Virus record (IMG/VR): IMGVR_UViG_3300045988_131623
Length of the DNA: 13,240 bases
Direction: 5' to 3' (one strand)
From: a virus
In this document: positions 2,487-13,240 of the stretch, piece by piece
How positions within the stretch are numbered: position 1 is the first letter of the stretch
Layout: every line of letters starts with the position of its first letter
Made by a program: the position numbers and the translations under genes
The notes under the pieces: model-generated
The model's database searches: none
Seen by the model: the letters and a program-made list of their open reading frames with translations, nothing else
Told to the model about the DNA's origin: nothing

Positions 2487-2946
2487 ATTCGCGATATCTC
2501 TCCAATATTTTTTGTGATGGTTCATTAGTGTGTTCAAGGTATATATCGGCGGCTTTATCGCTGTCGTATATGATATCTTCGGAATGTGTTCTTACAAGAT
2601 TCATAAAATCATAGAACTTTGATGCTTGTCTCCAATTCTTGAACTGATTAGTCCCAAACGTAATATTTAGTCTTTCAACTGCCGCCTTACGCTGTCGTTT
2701 TCTCTCAGCTATCACAAATGTCTTGTTCTTCAATGCCGCTTCTACTTCACGAATTGCCATTTCCAAGTTACGTTTAGACTTAATCTTTGAAACAACTGGA
2801 ATTCTAGGTTCAATATAAGCCCTCGCCGCTTCTACGTCTTTCGCGTAAGCACTTTTAGAAACTTTTGCTATTTGACCTGTAAGTTTCTTTCTCAACTCTC
2901 TGTATTTGACTTCTAGTTGTATTCTACTTGCAGATTTCTTTGCCAT
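2440..2946 (-). CDS. Short basic protein immediately upstream of the polymerase; putative terminal protein (TP)
   Basis: The ATG at 2946 is preceded by AAAGGAG. The protein is K/R-rich, about 168 aa. The segment NQFKNWRQASKF resembles the phi29 TP segment QFNKWKEQASSF as recalled. Its position directly 5' of the polymerase is canonical for a TP. It is shorter than known TPs, hence moderate confidence. Confidence 0.5.
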   Translation of the reverse strand: MAKKSASRIQLEVKYRELRKKLTGQIAKVSKSAYAKDVEAARAYIEPRIPVVSKIKSKRNLEMAIREVEAALKNKTFVIAERKRQRKAAVERLNITFGTNQFKNWRQASKFYDFMNLVRTHSEDIIYDSDKAADIYLEHTNEPSQKILERYREYESEFRKRSPKRVRF

Positions 2947-3097
2947 ATTTTCCACACTCCTTTCCTATTAAAGAGAGTATCACATTCTCTCTCAATACTA
3001 TCATTAATGCATTACTTCTTGAAGTACCCAGTTTAAAAGCAAGTTCATCAAGGTTTTTCAAGATATCCTCTTGAAAATTAACACTCACTGTTTTCAT
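2924..3097 (-). CDS. Ribbon-helix-helix (CopG/Arc/MetJ-type) transcriptional regulator, 57 aa
   Basis: This ORF is not in the supplied track. ATG 3097 is preceded by AAAGGAGAAAACT. The protein is MKTVSVNFQEDILKNLDELAFKLGTSRSNALMIVLRENVILSLIGKECGKYGKEICK, with a beta-strand followed by the G-T-S-R-S turn and helix typical of RHH. Its 3' end overlaps the TP-like start by about 20 nt in another frame. Confidence 0.6.
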   Translation of the reverse strand: MKTVSVNFQEDILKNLDELAFKLGTSRSNALMIVLRENVILSLIGKECGKYGKEICK

Positions 3098-3119: not shown

Positions 3120-3139
3120 AATGTTTCACGTGAAACATT
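3120..3139. promoter_or_regulatory. 20-bp perfect palindrome AATGTTTCACGTGAAACATT, copy 1; candidate operator
   Basis: The palindrome is perfect. It lies 23 nt upstream of the RHH start codon and downstream of a TGG-TATAAT element on the minus strand. An identical copy is at 7871-7890. Confidence 0.5.
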
Positions 3140-3212
3140 AGTCATCGTGAAGTCCGTCTATGACGAACCCTACAATTATACCAACACATAACCCTAACAA
3201 GAATAGGCTCAT
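3138..3212 (-). CDS. 24-aa hydrophobic micro-ORF (MSLFLLGLCVGIIVGFVIDGLHDD)
   Basis: ATG 3212 overlaps the TGA of the upstream 86-aa gene (ATGA coupling). GAGGTGA lies 6 nt upstream. The product has a single TM-like segment. It is too short to be confident. Confidence 0.25.
   Translation of the reverse strand: MSLFLLGLCVGIIVGFVIDGLHDD
3175..3183 (-). promoter_or_regulatory. Extended -10 element (TGG-TATAAT) upstream of the RHH gene, minus strand
   Basis: The minus strand reads GTTGGTATAATTG. The candidate -35 (TTCTTG at 17-nt spacing) is weak. The palindromic operator sits at about +30 to +48. Confidence 0.3.
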
Positions 3213-3469: not shown

Positions 3470-3515
3470 TGTTAAAACTCCTTTCATATAAGTAGTTATC
3501 TATTGGAACACTTAT

Positions 3516-3544
3516 ACAATACCACATATATTGTTGAATGTCAA
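3516..3544 (-). promoter_or_regulatory. Leftward early promoter (sigma-A type)
   Basis: The minus strand reads TTGACA (3544-3539), a 17-nt spacer, then TGG-TATTGT (-10 at 3521-3516). This gives a transcription start near 3508 and a leader of about 40 nt before the 86-aa gene. Confidence 0.5.
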
Positions 3545-3673
3545 TAATCAAAATGAAAAAATTATTGAAAACATGAAAATATTATGTTACTATAATAATG
3601 TCCTTGAGAGAAATACTTTCACAGGGCAGAAGTCCAAAAACAATTATAATATAAGAAAGGAGATTCCGGTACA

Positions 3674-4052: not shown

Positions 4053-4063
4053 CGTGAAACATT
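4053..4063. promoter_or_regulatory. Half-site of the palindrome (CGTGAAACATT) abutting the RBS of the SSB-like gene
   Basis: It matches the right arm of the 20-bp palindrome exactly over 11 nt and lies immediately 5' of AAAGGAG at 4064-4070. Confidence 0.25.
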
Positions 4064-4437: not shown

Positions 4438-5488
4438 ATCCAAGAGCCTGTACACGATGCACGGTTATCTGGACGTTGAGGGGATAGTCAAAAAAGGCTA
4501 TCCCTTTAACTTTATATGGGGTGGACGTGGCACGGGTAAGACATATGGTGGTCTGAAATATGTCGTGGAGCACAACAAGACTTTCATGTATTCTAGAACA
4601 AAACAAACTCAACTCGACAAGATTAAGAACGTTGAGTTGTCCCCATTCAAACCGTTAAATGCAGATAATGATTGGAATATACAGCCATTCCCTGTAGATG
4701 ATATTGCAGGATTCTACCACACAGAACTTAATGAGAAAGACCGACTTGTGCCAGTTGGTTCACCTGTTGGTTATGCGTCAGCTATCACCACACTAGCGAA
4801 TTTACGTGGATTTTCCGCTGAGGATGTGTCTGTGTGGATATGGGACGAGTTCATTCCGCAGAAAGGTGACCGTGTTCCGAAAGGAATTGCAACGTCTTTT
4901 CTTCACGGCTATGAAACTATGAATCGAAATAGGGAGTTGAAAGGACTGCCGCCGCTACAGGTGTTGTGCTTTTCGAACTCAGATAATGTAGGCTGTGAGT
5001 TGTTCGCCAGTCTAGGACTTATCCGCAAAGTCGCGGATATGTCACGGAAAAGACAGGAAACAGCTTTCCTCAAGTCAAGGGGCATCGCTCTGTATAACTT
5101 ATGTAATAGTCCTATCTCACAGGCGAAAAAAGAAACAGCACTCTATAAGATGGTAGGCGAACACAGCGGCTTTTCTCAAATGGCTTTAGGAAACGAATTC
5201 TATAATACTGACTATTCGGATGTAAGATCGCAAAACCTATCGGAATATCTTCCGCTAGTATTTTTCGAAGAAATCGCAATCTATGAACACAAGTCCTCAG
5301 ATATGCTCTACGTGTGTAAACATAAACAGGGTACACCAATTCGAGCATTTACCGGAATTAACGAGAAGAACATCAAAGCTTTTAAAAGGTACTATTCATG
5401 GATATGGAATGTAAATTATCTCGAAGACAAAATCTTTTTCGAGGACATAGAATCTAAATTTCTACTTGACAGCTATTTTCATATGTAG
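4423..5488 (+). CDS. DNA encapsidation (packaging) ATPase, phi29 gp16-like FtsK/HerA-type
   Basis: Walker A is FIWGGRGTGKT (phi29 gp16: VIGARGIGKS). Walker B is VWIWDEF (phi29: IVFDEF). RNRE and CFSNS match the phi29 RNRE and CLSNA. The N-terminal KSLYT matches phi29 KSLFY and supports the ATG at 4423. Confidence 0.9.
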
Positions 5489-5497
5489 TACAATGTT

Positions 5498-5592
5498 CGT
5501 ATAGGGAAAACAAAAGTCCGTGGCACAAGGACATACAGCGGAACTGTAGTGCGAGGATTCGTCCAATCCATGATACGGACTTTCCCTATATT
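5498..5592 (+). ncRNA. Candidate structured RNA element in the 128-nt gap after the ATPase gene
   Basis: The 5' segment 5499-5522 pairs with the 3' segment 5574-5591: TATAGGGAAA/TTTCCCTATA (10 bp), a 6-nt bulge, then GTCCGT/ACGGAC. That is about 16 bp enclosing roughly 50 nt that contains further short helices (GGAC..GTCC, GGATT..AATCC). There is no ORF and no obvious promoter or terminator. Confidence 0.2.
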
Positions 5593-5823: not shown

Positions 5824-6146
5824 ACATATCAGCAGAAATCATTGCAAAAACATCTGAAAGCGTAAAGGGATATATGCTTCATCCGCACACGGATGTATAC
5901 GGCGAATTAAAAGTTGATACCAAAAACCTTGACTTGATGTTACGCGATGCGCCGACTTATGACAGCAATGTGATCGCTTCTATGCCGAAAGGCAGTATAT
6001 TTTTTGGATATGGATTTACTGATTCCACCCTTAAATGGGTACTCGGACAGTATACCATGCCGAACGGAAAAATGATTGCAGGATTCGCCCACATTGACTA
6101 TTTAATCAGAATTAGAAAGGAGAATAAAAGACATGACAATGGATGA
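5820..6146 (+). CDS. Stand-alone bacterial SH3 (SH3b) domain protein; putative cell-wall-binding module
   Basis: The segment LKVDTKNLDLMLRDAPTYDSNVIASMPKGSIFFGYG...KWVLGQYTMPNGKMIAGFAHIDYL matches the SH3_3/SH3_5 pattern (LNVRsgPs..s.vig.l.kG..v....ngW.kv...G..Gyvh..Yl). A TTG start at 5820 is coupled to the upstream stop. An alternative ATG at 5874 is preceded by AAAGGGA. Confidence 0.6.
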   Translation: MNISAEIIAKTSESVKGYMLHPHTDVYGELKVDTKNLDLMLRDAPTYDSNVIASMPKGSIFFGYGFTDSTLKWVLGQYTMPNGKMIAGFAHIDYLIRIRKENKRHDNG

Positions 6147-6642
6147 TATTATCGCACTCGCGGGTGCGGGATTTACGAAAAATGACATTATTTCATTAAT
6201 TAACACAGCACCAGCACCAGCACCAGCACCAGCACCAGCACCAGCACCAGCACCAGCACCAGCACCAGCACCAGCACCAGCACCAGCGGTACAGCCAAAC
6301 ATGGGAATGCCGCCAGTTCCAGTGGGAGCGATGGCACAGCAGACAGTCACACCACCAGAATTATTACAGGCACAGCTCACAAGTCCGGCAATGGCAGGAC
6401 AGGCTCAGAGTCAGATGTTAGACTATGCTTTTCAGCAGGGAAATTATGCAGGGAGTCCAACACAGAATGTAGTAGGGCGGCAGTTTCCGAACAGTGATCA
6501 GTTGACAAATTCCATCAATGCGCTTACCAGAGCAGTACAGGCGAATGGAATCACACAGAATCTTGCAGGAGTTAATCATGTTCCGACTGTCGACGAAATG
6601 ACAGCGGCTATTATTAATCCACCTAGTGTGGTGAAAGGATGA
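6133..6642 (+). CDS. Protein with a (Pro-Ala)13 linker in the scaffold position upstream of the MCP gene
   Basis: AAGGAGA lies 10 nt upstream. The N-terminal helical motif is DDIIALAGAGFTKNDIISLI. A 26-residue (AP)n tract follows, then a Q/A/N-rich C-terminal half. The gene lies immediately 5' of the MCP gene, as the scaffold gene gp7 does in phi29. Confidence 0.65.
   Translation: MTMDDIIALAGAGFTKNDIISLINTAPAPAPAPAPAPAPAPAPAPAPAPAPAVQPNMGMPPVPVGAMAQQTVTPPELLQAQLTSPAMAGQAQSQMLDYAFQQGNYAGSPTQNVVGRQFPNSDQLTNSINALTRAVQANGITQNLAGVNHVPTVDEMTAAIINPPSVVKG
6208..6285. repeat. Perfect hexanucleotide tandem repeat (GCACCA)x13
   Basis: The repeat was counted directly: 78 nt with no interruptions. It encodes (Pro-Ala)13 in the plus frame. 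Confidence 0.95.
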
Positions 6643-6646
6643 TATA

Positions 6647-7840
6647 ATGGGAACAATAAATACCTTAGAATACTCGAAGCCGTCTATCTGTAGTTTTGAC
6701 TCTTCTAAAATTCTTACCAGTATTGTTAAACAGGCAACAGGAATTTCCGATATTGCAATTATTAATGGTGGTTTTGTGTCTATCGCTACTACTGCGTTAG
6801 GAATTGCACCAGATACATTACTTAGTGCTATGTCACAGGTTATTTCGCGTACTATTTTTTCTGTCAGACCGTATAATCGTAAGTTTGCAGGACTTTTTGT
6901 AGATAACATGAAGTGGGGAAACCATGTTCGTAAAATTAACATCGGAGATAAAGACTGGGAGATAAATGTTTCCTATGATCTGGCAGACGGAGAGAGTGTA
7001 GATGCTGATATTGTAAGCAAGCCGGACATTTTACAGACCAATTTTTATGGACAGTGTGTGTACAGTAAGCATTATACAATTTTTCGGGATCAGTTGAATA
7101 TCGCTTTGCAGAATGAAGAAGAATTTGAGAGATTCTACACAATGCTCGTTCAGAACACAATGGACATGATCGAACAGTGCCATGAAAATACAGCACGCGC
7201 GACTATCGCTAATCTTATTGGCGGAAAAGTTAAAGGTGATGTCAATAACGTTATTCACTTAGTCACAGAATATAACGATGTGACAGGACTCGCACTTGAC
7301 AGTGACACAGTGAAAAAACCAGAAAATTTTGTTCCATTCTACAAGTGGGCATTCTCTAGAATTAAAACAATTTCAGGACTTATGACGGAAAGAAGTTTGC
7401 AGTATCACATTAATATCACAGGGCATAACATCATGCGTCACACTCCTGTTCAGAACCAGAGATTATATTTATACACACCAGAAATGAACAACGTCGAAAG
7501 TTCTGTATTTTCAAGCGTTTTCAATGAACAGTACTTGAAAATGATGGACTATGAGGGTGTTAATTTTTGGCAGTCCATTAAAACACCAATGGGAATTAAC
7601 GTGAACGCACGTTATATTACTGCGACAGGTACTTTAACAACGGACGCTACAGGCACAGCAACTTCAAACATTCTCGGAGTCCTCATGGATGAAGAAGCGG
7701 CAGGGGTCACTACCTATGGTGCAAGAACTGCCGTTACTCCTTACAATGCAAGGGGTGAGTACACTAATGTTTGGTGGCACTTCAACGATCGGTATTGGAA
7801 TGACTTCACGGAAAATGCAGTTGTTTTCCTGTTAGATTGA
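6647..7840 (+). CDS. Major capsid protein (phi29 gp8-like, lacking the C-terminal Ig-like domain)
   Basis: The protein is 397 aa. It lies between the scaffold-position and tail-knob homologues. The C-terminal GEYTNVWWHF..FTENAVVF resembles phi29 gp8 GLYWNYYYHV..FANAVAFV as recalled. AAAGGATGA RBS upstream. Confidence 0.7.
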   Translation: MGTINTLEYSKPSICSFDSSKILTSIVKQATGISDIAIINGGFVSIATTALGIAPDTLLSAMSQVISRTIFSVRPYNRKFAGLFVDNMKWGNHVRKINIGDKDWEINVSYDLADGESVDADIVSKPDILQTNFYGQCVYSKHYTIFRDQLNIALQNEEEFERFYTMLVQNTMDMIEQCHENTARATIANLIGGKVKGDVNNVIHLVTEYNDVTGLALDSDTVKKPENFVPFYKWAFSRIKTISGLMTERSLQYHINITGHNIMRHTPVQNQRLYLYTPEMNNVESSVFSSVFNEQYLKMMDYEGVNFWQSIKTPMGINVNARYITATGTLTTDATGTATSNILGVLMDEEAAGVTTYGARTAVTPYNARGEYTNVWWHFNDRYWNDFTENAVVFLLD

Positions 7841-7848
7841 TATTTTTG

Positions 7849-7860
7849 GTTTCACGTGGG
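7849..7860. promoter_or_regulatory. Partial copy (TTTCACGTGGGA) of the palindrome core, 25 bp upstream of full copy 2
   Basis: It shares TTTCACGTG with the full site. Centre-to-centre spacing to the full site is about 25 bp. Confidence 0.3.
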
Positions 7861-7864
7861 ACGT

Positions 7865-7873
7865 TGTTATAAT
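7865..7873 (+). promoter_or_regulatory. Extended -10 promoter element TGT-TATAAT for the tail gene block
   Basis: TG is at 7865-7866 and TATAAT at 7868-7873, with no good -35. The element overlaps the first 3 bp of the palindrome. The implied transcription start is inside the palindrome and about 27 nt before the gp9-like ATG. Confidence 0.4.
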
Positions 7874-7890
7874 GTTTCACGTGAAACATT
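7871..7890. promoter_or_regulatory. 20-bp perfect palindrome AATGTTTCACGTGAAACATT, copy 2; candidate operator, with a possible weak hairpin-terminator role after the MCP gene
   Basis: It is identical to 3120-3139. It overlaps the -10 element and transcription start of the tail-gene promoter. On the plus strand it is followed by TTTTCT. Confidence 0.5.
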
Positions 7891-7906
7891 TTTCTGAGGT
7901 GATGTT

Positions 7907-9334
7907 ATGAGTTTTGAAGTTAAATTATACAGAGTCAAGAAAAGGAAAAACAGCACTTTCATTCCAGACGGTGAAGCAGGAAGAACCTTGAATTGTGTAG
8001 TAAAAGAGGGAACAGGGGTGCTGACTCCTGTTATTACAATTGCTAATTCAGCGGAGACTTTCAATCCGTCCGTGTACAACATGGCATATATTGAAGCATT
8101 TTCAAGGTGGTACTGGATTACTGACTGGAAAAATGAAGATAATATGTGGACTTGTTCTCTTCGGGTTGATGTTCTGGCAACATATAAGACGGAAATAGCT
8201 GACTATAATTATTATATTTTACGCTCATCAACTTCTTTTGACGGTGATATTATGGATACTTATTATCCGTATAAACCACAGGTTAATCGACATATTTCAA
8301 CAGGAGAACCATTATGGCAATTGGAAAGTGGTCTTGATACAGCAGGAACGTTTGTGGTGAGTATTGTTAATAAATACGGTATCTCAAATTTTTATGCATT
8401 CACACCGCCTCAGTTTAAGGCATTTGCACAGGCAGTATTCGCAAATATCACTTGGATGTTAGGTGATGGGATTAGTGGAATAACAGATAATTTTGCTAAA
8501 TTGTGTGTTAATCCAGCTCAATATATAACATCTGTTCATTGGTTGCCATTTTCAATAGGCGGAACTGATATGGTTGGAATGACAATAGGTTGGTGGGACA
8601 TTGAATTGCCGTCTGGTCTTAAAAAACTTGATGATTCATTATTCAAACGTTTCACGAGTAGCGTTACCCCTGTAGTTCATCCTCAAAGTGCGACGAGAGG
8701 TAACTATCTTAATTCAAGTCCTTATAGAAACTTGAGAATATGGATTCCGGCTTTTGGCGTAATGACAATAGACAGTGCTAAAGTTCCAAGTGGCAACACG
8801 ATTAATATTACAGCATGGGTAGACTCTCGAACAGGTTACGCAATGTGTACCGCTACTACACCTTTAGATACTGGTAACGTAAATGAATTATTAGGGGTGT
8901 TGTATACTAATGTCGCTGTCAACTATCAAGTGAGTGATATAAAAACTAACTATACCGCGATAGCGGACAAAGCTACGTCTGCTTTAGGAAGTCTTGCAAG
9001 TTCTGTGTTGAATCCTATCGGAGGAATCAGCGGCTTCATCAAAAATGGAATCGGCGCTATACAAGCTACAGGTTCAGCAGAGGTCAGCACACGCGGAACT
9101 ATAGGTAGTACAATCGGATTAACGTCTGGTATTTATTGTTACTCAGATTGTCAGTTATTAGTTGACGAGGACAGAGCAGACAATGGGAGACCTTATTGTA
9201 AAAACGGAAAATTTAGTACCCTAGGAAACGGTTTTTACACTGTTGAAAACGGTTCTACTCCTCTGAATGGGGCATATGAAGCTGAAATTGATGAGGTTAA
9301 GAATTTTCTGGAAAGTGGGGTGTATTATGCGTAG
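7907..9334 (+). CDS. Tail knob / distal tube protein (phi29 gp9-like)
   Basis: GAGGTGA RBS upstream. The N-terminal region YNMAYIEAFSRWYWITDWKNEDNMWTCSLRVDVLATY resembles phi29 gp9 [41 protein letters not shown] as recalled. The syntenic position after the MCP gene fits. Confidence 0.7.
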   Translation: MSFEVKLYRVKKRKNSTFIPDGEAGRTLNCVVKEGTGVLTPVITIANSAETFNPSVYNMAYIEAFSRWYWITDWKNEDNMWTCSLRVDVLATYKTEIADYNYYILRSSTSFDGDIMDTYYPYKPQVNRHISTGEPLWQLESGLDTAGTFVVSIVNKYGISNFYAFTPPQFKAFAQAVFANITWMLGDGISGITDNFAKLCVNPAQYITSVHWLPFSIGGTDMVGMTIGWWDIELPSGLKKLDDSLFKRFTSSVTPVVHPQSATRGNYLNSSPYRNLRIWIPAFGVMTIDSAKVPSGNTINITAWVDSRTGYAMCTATTPLDTGNVNELLGVLYTNVAVNYQVSDIKTNYTAIADKATSALGSLASSVLNPIGGISGFIKNGIGAIQATGSAEVSTRGTIGSTIGLTSGIYCYSDCQLLVDEDRADNGRPYCKNGKFSTLGNGFYTVENGSTPLNGAYEAEIDEVKNFLESGVYYA

Positions 9335-9978: not shown

Positions 9979-10899
9979 ATGATGAATGTTTTTAGCACAA
10001 ATGTTCCTGTTAGTTATGACATGATTAACTTGTATACTTCCAGTTATTCCCCGTCTACATTGCATTGCAAGAACACTCAGTTATATTCCTATTTTCTGAG
10101 ATACCTTTTGCAGAAATGTATGTCAGTATTCAAGTGGGATTTGCCGGAAGAGTGGGACAAGAATTATTTTCTGTACACCTTGTACTGTTGGGGATTCTTA
10201 TGTGTTTTTGAAACTGACAAATACGGTGTGATTCCGCAGGCTTGTGGTTTACAGGGATATAATATTTTTTATCAACCTACAGAGGTCAATATTGCAAACC
10301 CGTTGCTGAGAGGTATTAATATAAAAAGAATAAACAAAGACTGTGTAATTCTCAGATTGCAACCAGACTGGCGTGGTGTTATGGACATATGTTCTTACTA
10401 CGCTGATAATATGGCACTGACAGCAGAAACTTGTGAGATTAACATTGCAAACAGTAAATTAACTTATATGTTTGGTGTTGATGGAAAAGTACAGGCAGAG
10501 GCATTGAAGAAAACGTTTGACAAAATTATGTCTGGGAATACCGCAGTATATTATGGTAACAATCTCAGACGTAGGGATGCTATGGGAAATACTACAGACC
10601 CATGGACAACGTTTGCTAATAAGCTGAAAGAAAACTTCATTGCACCAGATTTACAGGATACACTCAGACGGTGGGAAGAAATGTTCTGCAATGATGTTGG
10701 TATTCCGAACGTGAGGTCAGACAAGAAAGAAAGGTTGATTACAGCTGAAGCTGAGAGTAACGATTTCGAAACACAGAGTAAATGTGACTTGTGGCTTGAA
10801 GAATTGCAGAAAAGCTGTAGAAAGATTAATGCTATGTTTGGTGACAAACTGAGTAGTGCCGTGTGGGTTGACTGGAGGAAAGGTAGGGAAGATGGTTAA
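9979..10899 (+). CDS. Head-tail connector / portal (phi29 gp10-like)
   Basis: The protein is 306 aa (phi29 gp10 is 309 aa). KKERLITAEAESNDFETQS and SCRKINAMFG resemble phi29 gp10 KKERMVTDEVSSNDEQIES and ACEKINELYG as recalled. The N-terminal FKWDLPEEW resembles phi29 FEWENLPPT. Confidence 0.85.
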   Translation: MMNVFSTNVPVSYDMINLYTSSYSPSTLHCKNTQLYSYFLRYLLQKCMSVFKWDLPEEWDKNYFLYTLYCWGFLCVFETDKYGVIPQACGLQGYNIFYQPTEVNIANPLLRGINIKRINKDCVILRLQPDWRGVMDICSYYADNMALTAETCEINIANSKLTYMFGVDGKVQAEALKKTFDKIMSGNTAVYYGNNLRRRDAMGNTTDPWTTFANKLKENFIAPDLQDTLRRWEEMFCNDVGIPNVRSDKKERLITAEAESNDFETQSKCDLWLEELQKSCRKINAMFGDKLSSAVWVDWRKGREDG

Positions 10900-12985: not shown

Positions 12986-12990
12986 ACGTT

Positions 12991-13016
12991 AGGGTGACTT
13001 CGGTTGCCCTCTTTTT
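12991..13016 (+). terminator. Intrinsic terminator for the rightward (late) transcript, embedded in the inner edge of the right ITR
   Basis: The plus strand reads AGGGUGAC-UUCG-GUUGCCCU-C-UUUUU. It starts 6 nt after the appendage gene stop. It is the mirror image of the left-end terminator. Confidence 0.6.
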
Positions 13017-13240
13017 CGCGAGTGAGTTAGTTGGAACTAACTTTGTTCCCGTCAGAGTTAAATGCTACTAACTCATGGGCGGAGCGACCGGAGGGAGCGG
13101 AGCCATTTCGAACATATGTTTGGTTTAGTGTGCGTTCGCCGCGGACAGACTGGGCGGTTTGTGTTTGTCTGTCGCGGACAGAATGTTCGAGCTGTGTCCG
13201 TCACTCGCGGACAAATTGGGGAAAAGTGTCCGTCACACAC
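12991..13240. repeat. Right inverted terminal repeat (ITR)
   Basis: It is the reverse complement of 1-251 except for one A fewer in the homopolymer run. Confidence 0.95.

Follow-up and report, generated by a model that had tools for sequence, protein, structure and literature searches.

To our knowledge, phi29 and Nf of Bacillus subtilis are the only virulent phages whose parS sites have been studied; there the sites let the phage enter the spore and survive dormancy. The linear plasmid-prophage N15 is stably maintained; it encodes its own SopA and SopB, and plasmid-specific centromere palindromes are scattered on its genome. Dispersed palindromes are also present on the IncP-1 plasmid RK2, whose ParB-family protein KorB is a global repressor with a dozen OB sites, some of them at promoters. 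In chromosomal systems a half-site, GTTTCAC, also occurs, and the consensus of the full parS site is TGTTNCACGTGAAACA, with the perfect palindrome given as a natural parS (review, PMC7022226). Silencing at the P1 and F centromeres is cited in a passage of the same review.

For phi29, a passage in PMC2731898 that cites Meijer et al. (2005, EMBO J) gives five parS sites and involves Spo0J in moving the phage genome into the prespore. In the phi29 record (L263, EU771092) we found four exact copies of the B. subtilis-type site TGTTCCACGTGAAACA, at 10445, 15903, 17243 and 18760, and one further site with three mismatches; strand-wise matches number 12, against 0.95 expected. Neither does this record annotate any parS, nor does a 2024 review of phi29-like phages mention it. 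The site at 17243-17258 begins with the base that directly follows the stop codon of gene 16, which encodes the packaging ATPase, and lies 3 bp before the annotated bidirectional terminator TD1. Host-type parS on phi29 was thus known; what is added here, as read from the sequence, is another phi29-like phage with such sites.

Genome organization

The window, by which we mean the whole stretch of DNA analysed, is bounded by perfect inverted terminal repeats of about 251 bp (1-251 and 12990-13240; 229 nt plus an overlapping 26-nt arm). These repeats indicate that the 13,240 bp of the window make up a complete linear genome, and they fit protein-primed replication. Each repeat holds a GC-rich hairpin with a T-run (12991-13010). 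The minus strand encodes a type-B DNA polymerase (polB, 390-2537), a terminal-protein-like ORF and a 57-aa ribbon-helix-helix (RHH)-like ORF. The plus strand encodes an SSB-like ORF, a gp16-type packaging ATPase, a Phi29_MCP capsid protein (6647-7840), a 475-aa ORF, a tail lysozyme and a gp10-type connector. The RHH-like gene precedes the terminal-protein-like and polB genes and so corresponds in position to gene 4 of phi29; its assignment is as follows:

2924-3097, minus strand: 57-aa RHH-like gene; Pfam RHH_1 at E = 0.0084, short of the curated cut-off, and a PHROG transcriptional repressor at E = 4e-4

Two perfect copies of a chromosomal-type parS

The initial annotation had drawn attention to a 20-bp palindrome, AATGTTTCACGTGAAACATT, that occurs twice and was held to do so by more than chance. 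The palindrome is indeed exact at 3120-3139 and 7871-7890, and none of 200 dinucleotide shuffles reaches two copies; a search of the window that allowed up to three mismatches returned the same number of matches, two, against 0.01 expected. The functional unit is the 16-mer core TGTTTCACGTGAAACA, or the 14-mer GTTTCACGTGAAAC, and the AA/TT flanks that complete the 20-mer are not kept in relatives. Judged by its sequence, this 16-mer is the canonical chromosomal parS, the nucleation site of ParB (Spo0J), and both copies in the window match the consensus without a mismatch. The full sites and their partial counterparts are:

3122-3137, unstranded: parS copy 1, perfect 16-mer TGTTTCACGTGAAACA (20-mer 3120-3139)
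7873-7888, unstranded: parS copy 2, perfect 16-mer TGTTTCACGTGAAACA (20-mer 7871-7890)
7848-7863, plus strand: degenerate parS-like copy GGTTTCACGTGGGACG with four mismatches, the changes in its right half all A to G
4053-4063, unstranded: half-parS CGTGAAACATT, abutting the AAAGGAG ribosome-binding site of the SSB-like gene
8649-8656, plus strand: isolated half-site GTTTCACG within the 475-aa ORF

Copy 1 has a 24-aa hydrophobic ORF (3138-3212, minus strand) on one side and, on the other, the ribosome-binding site of the RHH gene with its start. The small ORF, MSLFLLGLCVGIIVGFVIDGLHDD, is unannotated and belongs to the orf92 module, and its TAA stop codon overlaps the end of the palindrome. 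Copy 2 occupies the 66-bp gap between the end of the major capsid gene (7840) and the start of the 475-aa gene of the tail block (7907). The degenerate 16-mer begins 25 bp ahead of copy 2. It contains the partial site described earlier, TTTCACGTGGGA, which is present at 7850-7861 and thus shifted rightward by one base from the position first given for it. The half-site reported beside the ribosome-binding site of the SSB-like gene was found as described. In all, GTTTCACG occurs seven times in the window against 0.48 expected. Five GTTTCAC heptamers lie outside the two full sites; the chance expectation of 2.77 counts the whole window including those sites, and the excess of half-sites in the window beyond the parS copies and their remnants is not significant. 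The half-site at 8649-8656 is probably due to chance.

The assignment to parS is borne out by where else the 16-mer is found. The literature has 27 papers with the exact string, and among the 20 matches listed every study concerns ParB/parS or replication origins. A scan of bacteria for the exact 16-mer, with one genome per species, found it in all major phyla, often clustered. Within 8 kb of it, ParA-like genes are present at 44 of 120 loci, ParB genes (identified by Pfam ParB_N and HTH_ParB) at 41, MnmG/GidA at 36 and RsmG/GidB at 35; other frequent neighbours are MnmE, YidC and Jag, which together describe the origin-proximal par neighbourhood. Unrelated viral contigs of 30-72% GC likewise have the exact 16-mer in multiple copies, which means that an operator specific to one phage family is not an explanation. 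Four such contigs, of 50-72% GC, hold three to five exact parS sites in about 1 kb (L043 2657-3444, L083 10535-11462, L095 240-961 and L110 276-910). No ParB was found in the stretches fetched for these four, and the clusters may represent arrays of centromere sites on elements that are plasmid-like or temperate.

The viral sites and those of the chromosomal ParABS systems have the same 16 bp and share the GTTTCAC half-site, and in either setting there are tandem or clustered copies 24-37 bp apart. They differ in that the chromosomal sites are near oriC, whereas here the sites are on a virus with neither parA nor parB in cis.

Conservation in close relatives

Retrieval based on the major capsid protein yielded 21 relatives of about 13 kb from IMG/VR and one fecal contig from GenBank. 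Of about 60 copies of the 16-mer in the 21 relatives, nearly all are unchanged; the ACGT centre is invariant, and there is not a single compensatory change. An unchanged 16-mer that shows no compensatory substitutions argues for a sequence-specific DNA site and not for a hairpin. In this family, over 20 related genomes of about 13 kb, the sites fall at four intergenic positions:

Position A: before the RHH gene, corresponding to copy 1; in exactly the nine genomes that have the orf92 module
Position B: before the SSB-like gene; one or two copies
Position C: after the packaging ATPase; six genomes
Position D: after the capsid gene, corresponding to copy 2; perfect or near-perfect in every genome that covers the region

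The check proposed with the initial annotation, a search for the motif at equivalent positions in related genomes, therefore gave a positive answer after the capsid gene wherever the region is covered. The motif had been taken for a dispersed regulatory element. That it is non-random, dispersed and kept in position holds good, but its identity is that of the pan-bacterial parS and not of an operator for the RHH protein.

At position B, the window and two relatives (L002 and L011) have the half-site only. In sister genomes a full parS lies 21 bp downstream of this half-site, and the three lack the roughly 44 bp in which that full site resides. Position D occurs in two architectures. In the window type, the decayed copy is followed by TATAAT, the perfect parS and a T-run. 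In the second, found in about 40% of relatives, a GC-rich canonical terminator (GAGCGGGUGUUAUGCCCGCUC-UUUU) is followed by aattaa and the perfect parS, with no T-run and no TATAAT. The flanks of position D are not homologous between the two and yet the parS is identical, which makes it an island of identity in diverged surroundings.

parS in the wider clade and in other phages

An unbiased search with a polB profile supplied a wider sample of 73 further relatives (897 kb), whose polB is 40-54% identical to that of the window. This sample contains 78 perfect parS sites and 31 with one mismatch, against 0 and 0.05 expected, and at least one perfect site is present in 35 of the 73 loci. A subclade (L288-L309) typically has two to five parS each, at conserved places of its own: two tandem sites spaced 34-37 bp apart behind the ATPase gene, one site before a gene near 11.3 kb and two within the polB reading frame. 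The in-frame copies encode the peptide NVSRET, where the polB of the window has unrelated residues. The presence of parS in this clade is therefore under selection as DNA, independently of promoters. Perfect in-frame polB copies, two per genome, were seen in a sister clade, in L022 at 1656-1671 and 1788-1803 and in L288 at 2669 and 3020, with the same places used in L289-L308; NVSRET is likewise the product of parS sites within bacterial gidB and mnmE.

A small survey of phages found parS with up to two mismatches in phi29, Nf, Clostridium phage HM2, Amedibacillus phage AD70P3 and one fecal contig. It is absent from a Salmonella relative, from the Acinetobacter, Vibrio, Streptococcus (Cp-1) and Staphylococcus (44AHJD) phages and from GA-1. 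Chromosomal par is near-universal except in the Enterobacteriaceae, Pasteurellaceae and Mycoplasmataceae, and the host family of the Salmonella relative is one without it. The nearest cultured relatives of the window infect Clostridium and Amedibacillus. So small a survey does not prove that parS goes with spore-forming hosts. Since about half of the distant relatives and GA-1 have no parS, the trait is dispensable.

Throughout these genomes the sites are unaccompanied by partition genes. Pfam detects no ParB domain in the ORFs of the window, and HMMs built from the ParB and ParA clusters that neighbour the bacterial sites find no homologue in the window, in its family or in the polB sample; a phage-encoded ParB or ParA was accordingly rejected. 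With neither parA nor parB in cis, the partition function would be borrowed and not encoded.

Comparison with phi29, N15 and KorB

With phi29 and Nf the window shares a protein-primed linear genome of the phi29 type, several exact host-type parS sites and the lack of par genes. Its polB, gp16-like ATPase, Phi29_MCP and connector, together with two perfect sites, place it in the same category. In both groups the sites lie in intergenic and in coding DNA, and the phi29 site that follows the packaging-ATPase gene beside TD1 has its parallel in the post-ATPase sites of the relatives of the window. There are differences as well. The site here is the perfect palindrome TGTTTCACGTGAAACA, whereas phi29 has the B. 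subtilis variant, TGTTCCACGTGAAACA. In size the genome falls short of that of phi29 by a third, and it is distant from it (polB about 24% identical); its source is the human gut. One of its sites, unlike those of phi29, lies within a terminator-like hairpin and overlaps a -10-like element. Spo0A boxes (TGTCGAA), which go together with parS near promoters in the phi29 strategy, were considered as a sign of a link to sporulation and rejected as such because they are not enriched: against 1.98 expected, the window has a single box, which lies in a coding region. For this reason the phi29 scheme in full is not demonstrated here.

N15 resembles the present phage in having several dispersed centromere palindromes on a linear phage genome, some beside promoters, and it is from such placement that a partition protein can also affect gene expression. 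It differs in encoding SopA and SopB of its own; here the sites are the host's own consensus sites, and the family is counted among virulent phages. A similar likeness is offered by KorB with its OB sites, with dispersed palindromes for a ParB-family protein, some at promoters. KorB, though, is a product of the plasmid, and the operators that it binds have no sequence relationship to chromosomal parS; that host ParB acts as a repressor in the present case is a possibility only.

A model for the use of host ParB

We consider it probable that host ParB is hijacked through the chromosomal-type parS sites for segregation of the phage or its entrapment in the spore, as in phi29. Four lines of evidence lead to this reading: the identity of the site with parS, its conservation and multiplication independent of local context, the lack of phage partition proteins and the precedent of phi29. 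We infer both the binding of host ParB and the payoff in segregation or dormancy. Upon injection, host ParB would load at the parS sites of the phage, and the small genome would then be handled by the chromosome-partition machinery of the host. It would be positioned and segregated together with the origin region, and so be delivered to daughter cells or, if the host sporulates, to the forespore. Copy 2 probably adds a second layer to this reading: the decayed and the perfect copy pair in the plus-strand transcript into a hairpin with a U-tract, a likely partial terminator after the capsid gene that takes the place of the canonical one in sister genomes (see below). ParB at copy 2 would also cover the -10-like element, and a damping of tail-gene expression by ParB bound there is possible. 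Accumulation of ParB in vitro requires DNA with blocked ends; that the terminal-protein caps supply such ends on this genome is speculation.

A clade-wide version of the model can be put forward tentatively, although we regard it as unlikely. In it, hijacking of ParB would be core to the lifestyle of the ~13-kb phi29-like gut phages, each with two to five consensus parS sites. ParB-CTP clamps would be kept on the linear, terminal-protein-capped DNA and coat the whole chromosome, and the phage would persist in gut Firmicutes in a dormant state, either partitioned like a plasmid or entrapped in spores. Late genes would be held off through the parS at the junction of terminator and -10 element, and ParB would replace the role that Spo0A boxes have in phi29.

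The conservation and multiplication of parS, even in coding sequence, across dozens of uncultured ~13-kb phi29-like phages of the human gut that have no par genes suggests that a borrowed host centromere is a general strategy of the group. If this is true, gut phages that pass for lytic may be able to persist, either as a carrier state or in the spores of gut Firmicutes, which would bear on virome stability, on transmission from person to person and on the assignment of phages to hosts.

Alternative functions of the palindromes

The region around copy 2 contains two further elements, each of which bears on a different account of the palindromes:

7865-7873, plus strand: extended -10-like element TGtTATAAT, located at the hairpin apex; the parS 16-mer begins with its final T
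7849-7895, plus strand: composite RNA hairpin in which 7849-7866 pairs with 7870-7887 (18 bp including 4 G.U pairs), followed by AUUUUUCU

The first element raises the prospect of a ParB-dependent transcription switch, in which host ParB would silence adjacent promoters (at copy 2 the -10/+1 region before the tail block, at copy 1 the region before the RHH, terminal-protein and polB genes) and so tie lysis to the cell cycle or to the state of ParB. Copy 2 overlaps TATAAT, as had been noted at the outset, and the degenerate copy covers the spacer and the -35 region. In P. aeruginosa, genes that neighbour an intergenic parS are repressed by ParB bound there, and the ParB-family protein KorB represses globally. 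In the close family, the distance from each site to the ribosome-binding site downstream of it is 8-25 bp; we keep a transcriptional role in play because all parS copies of this family are just upstream of ribosome-binding sites and beside promoter- or terminator-like signals. The promoter itself, which had been described as of the extended -10 class, is a consensus match only. TATAAT is kept in window-like relatives, but the TG extension is lost in 8 of 14 of them (ttacTATAAT, ttatTATAAT), the best -35 candidate is a poor TTGGTT, and there is no -10 element in the second architecture. The element is also absent from the list returned by a promoter scan. Many copies in the relatives lie within the polB coding sequence, far from promoters, and in so compact a genome intergenic DNA is the only neutral spot for a 16-bp palindrome. 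We therefore judge it quite unlikely that switching transcription is what the sites are for.

The parS sites could instead serve as a sponge. Replicating phage DNA, at hundreds of copies with two to five parS each, would titrate host ParB and with it SMC loading and the control of Soj and DnaA, and so disturb segregation, replication control or division in the host. Much of what supports the hijacking of ParB serves this proposal equally, since the sequence evidence is the same; each small genome has multiple perfect high-affinity consensus sites, and ParB is linked to SMC, to DnaA control and to division. It is phi29, the sole case studied experimentally, that points the other way, to segregation into the spore, and we think titration very unlikely to be the purpose of the sites.

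The second element suggests a purely RNA-level role, in which the palindromes would act only as hairpins in the transcript (as terminator, processing signal or stabiliser) and the match to parS would be incidental. The composite hairpin, found by a terminator scan as a stem-loop with a U-tract at copy 2, folds far better than expected. The 75-nt stretch 7836-7910 that holds it has a folding energy of -23.7 kcal/mol (z = -4.49), and none of 200 shuffles folds as well. All 18 core pairs are formed in 12 distinct relatives of the window type. The five variable positions show A/G switches only, opposite invariant U residues of copy 2, which implies that the decayed copy lost the parS consensus and kept its pairing in RNA. 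Because a classical terminator stands at this point in sister genomes, the hairpin is likely to be an intrinsic, partial terminator after the highly expressed capsid gene, a role for which folding makes it a candidate. A leaky terminator at this place had been proposed earlier on the strength of the T-run; copy 2 is directly followed by TTTTTCT and copy 1 has no T-run on either strand. The hairpin and its U-tract stand, but the stem is formed by pairing of the partial with the full copy and not by the 20-bp palindrome alone. As a hairpin or terminator in its own right the 20-mer was rejected: the RNA fold of copy 1 is unremarkable and like that of shuffles (z = -1.0), with no U-tract, and no covariation is seen in more than 100 copies. 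In these copies the 16-mer, including the ACGT that would form the loop, is invariant. In the second architecture, moreover, the motif lies downstream of a complete terminator and is therefore not needed for termination. An exact match to parS that is repeated across divergent clades cannot be incidental, and we regard an exclusive function in RNA as highly improbable.

Finally, the palindrome had been read as the operator of the phage's own RHH regulator, for autoregulation at copy 1 and control of a late, tail-gene promoter at copy 2. Copy 1 sits 22 bp upstream of the RHH start codon, and copy 2 overlaps the -10-like element. RHH proteins (Arc, CopG, omega) often bind abutting inverted heptads as dimers of dimers, and a short perfect palindrome of two abutting inverted heptads beside an RHH gene is just what the operators of Arc, Mnt, CopG and omega look like. 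Unlike these, parS is not specific to phages that encode an RHH protein and belongs to another, well-defined protein-DNA system, being identical to the universal site recognised by the helix-turn-helix protein ParB. The distribution of the two does not agree either. Position A follows the orf92 module and not the RHH gene, and 11 other relatives that retain the gene (75-98% identity) are without copy 1. An iterative search with the 57-aa protein found homologues in the close family and five other loci only. Of the loci that carry parS, 40 have no detectable homologue (two of these are fragments), while eight loci with the RHH gene have no perfect site, some of them with one-mismatch sites. Add to this the copies in the polB coding sequence and the multiple copies of the same 16-mer in unrelated contigs and bacterial origin regions, and the operator reading is scarcely credible; we rejected it. 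For annotation, the case is a caution: a palindrome beside a small regulator gene and a -10 box mimics an operator, and here it is a host centromere site. The boxes of CRP/FNR, Rex, CodY, CcpA (cre), LexA/Cheo and Noc (NBS) do not fit the half-sites in orientation and spacing, and they were set aside in favour of the exact match to parS.

Other features of the genome

A better candidate for the location of the real RHH operator, and the more plausible one, is the divergent intergenic region at 3490-3670, which separates the leftward operon (orf92, RHH, terminal protein and polB) from the rightward genes. Several promoter-like matches fall here, one of them TTGACA-17-TATTGT with TG (minus strand, 3544-3516), and this is likely the region of early and late control.

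A near-consensus promoter, TTGACA-17-TACAAT (5466-5494), lies at the end of the packaging-ATPase gene and is followed by a non-coding gap of 128 bp. On the plus strand this gap contains a closed, multi-branched fold of about 95 nt (5499-5591; -31.8 kcal/mol, z = -3.5), the outer stem of which is formed by UAUAGGGAAA and UUUCCCUAUA. Its predicted structure makes it a candidate small structured RNA, possibly an analogue of the packaging RNA. A search of the whole window against Rfam at E <= 1, which included this structure and the hairpin region, gave no match.

The scaffold-like ORF at 6133-6642 contains a perfect 6-bp tandem repeat, (GCACCA)n, at 6194-6305 that encodes about 18 Pro-Ala dipeptides, and the length of this ORF differs among relatives.
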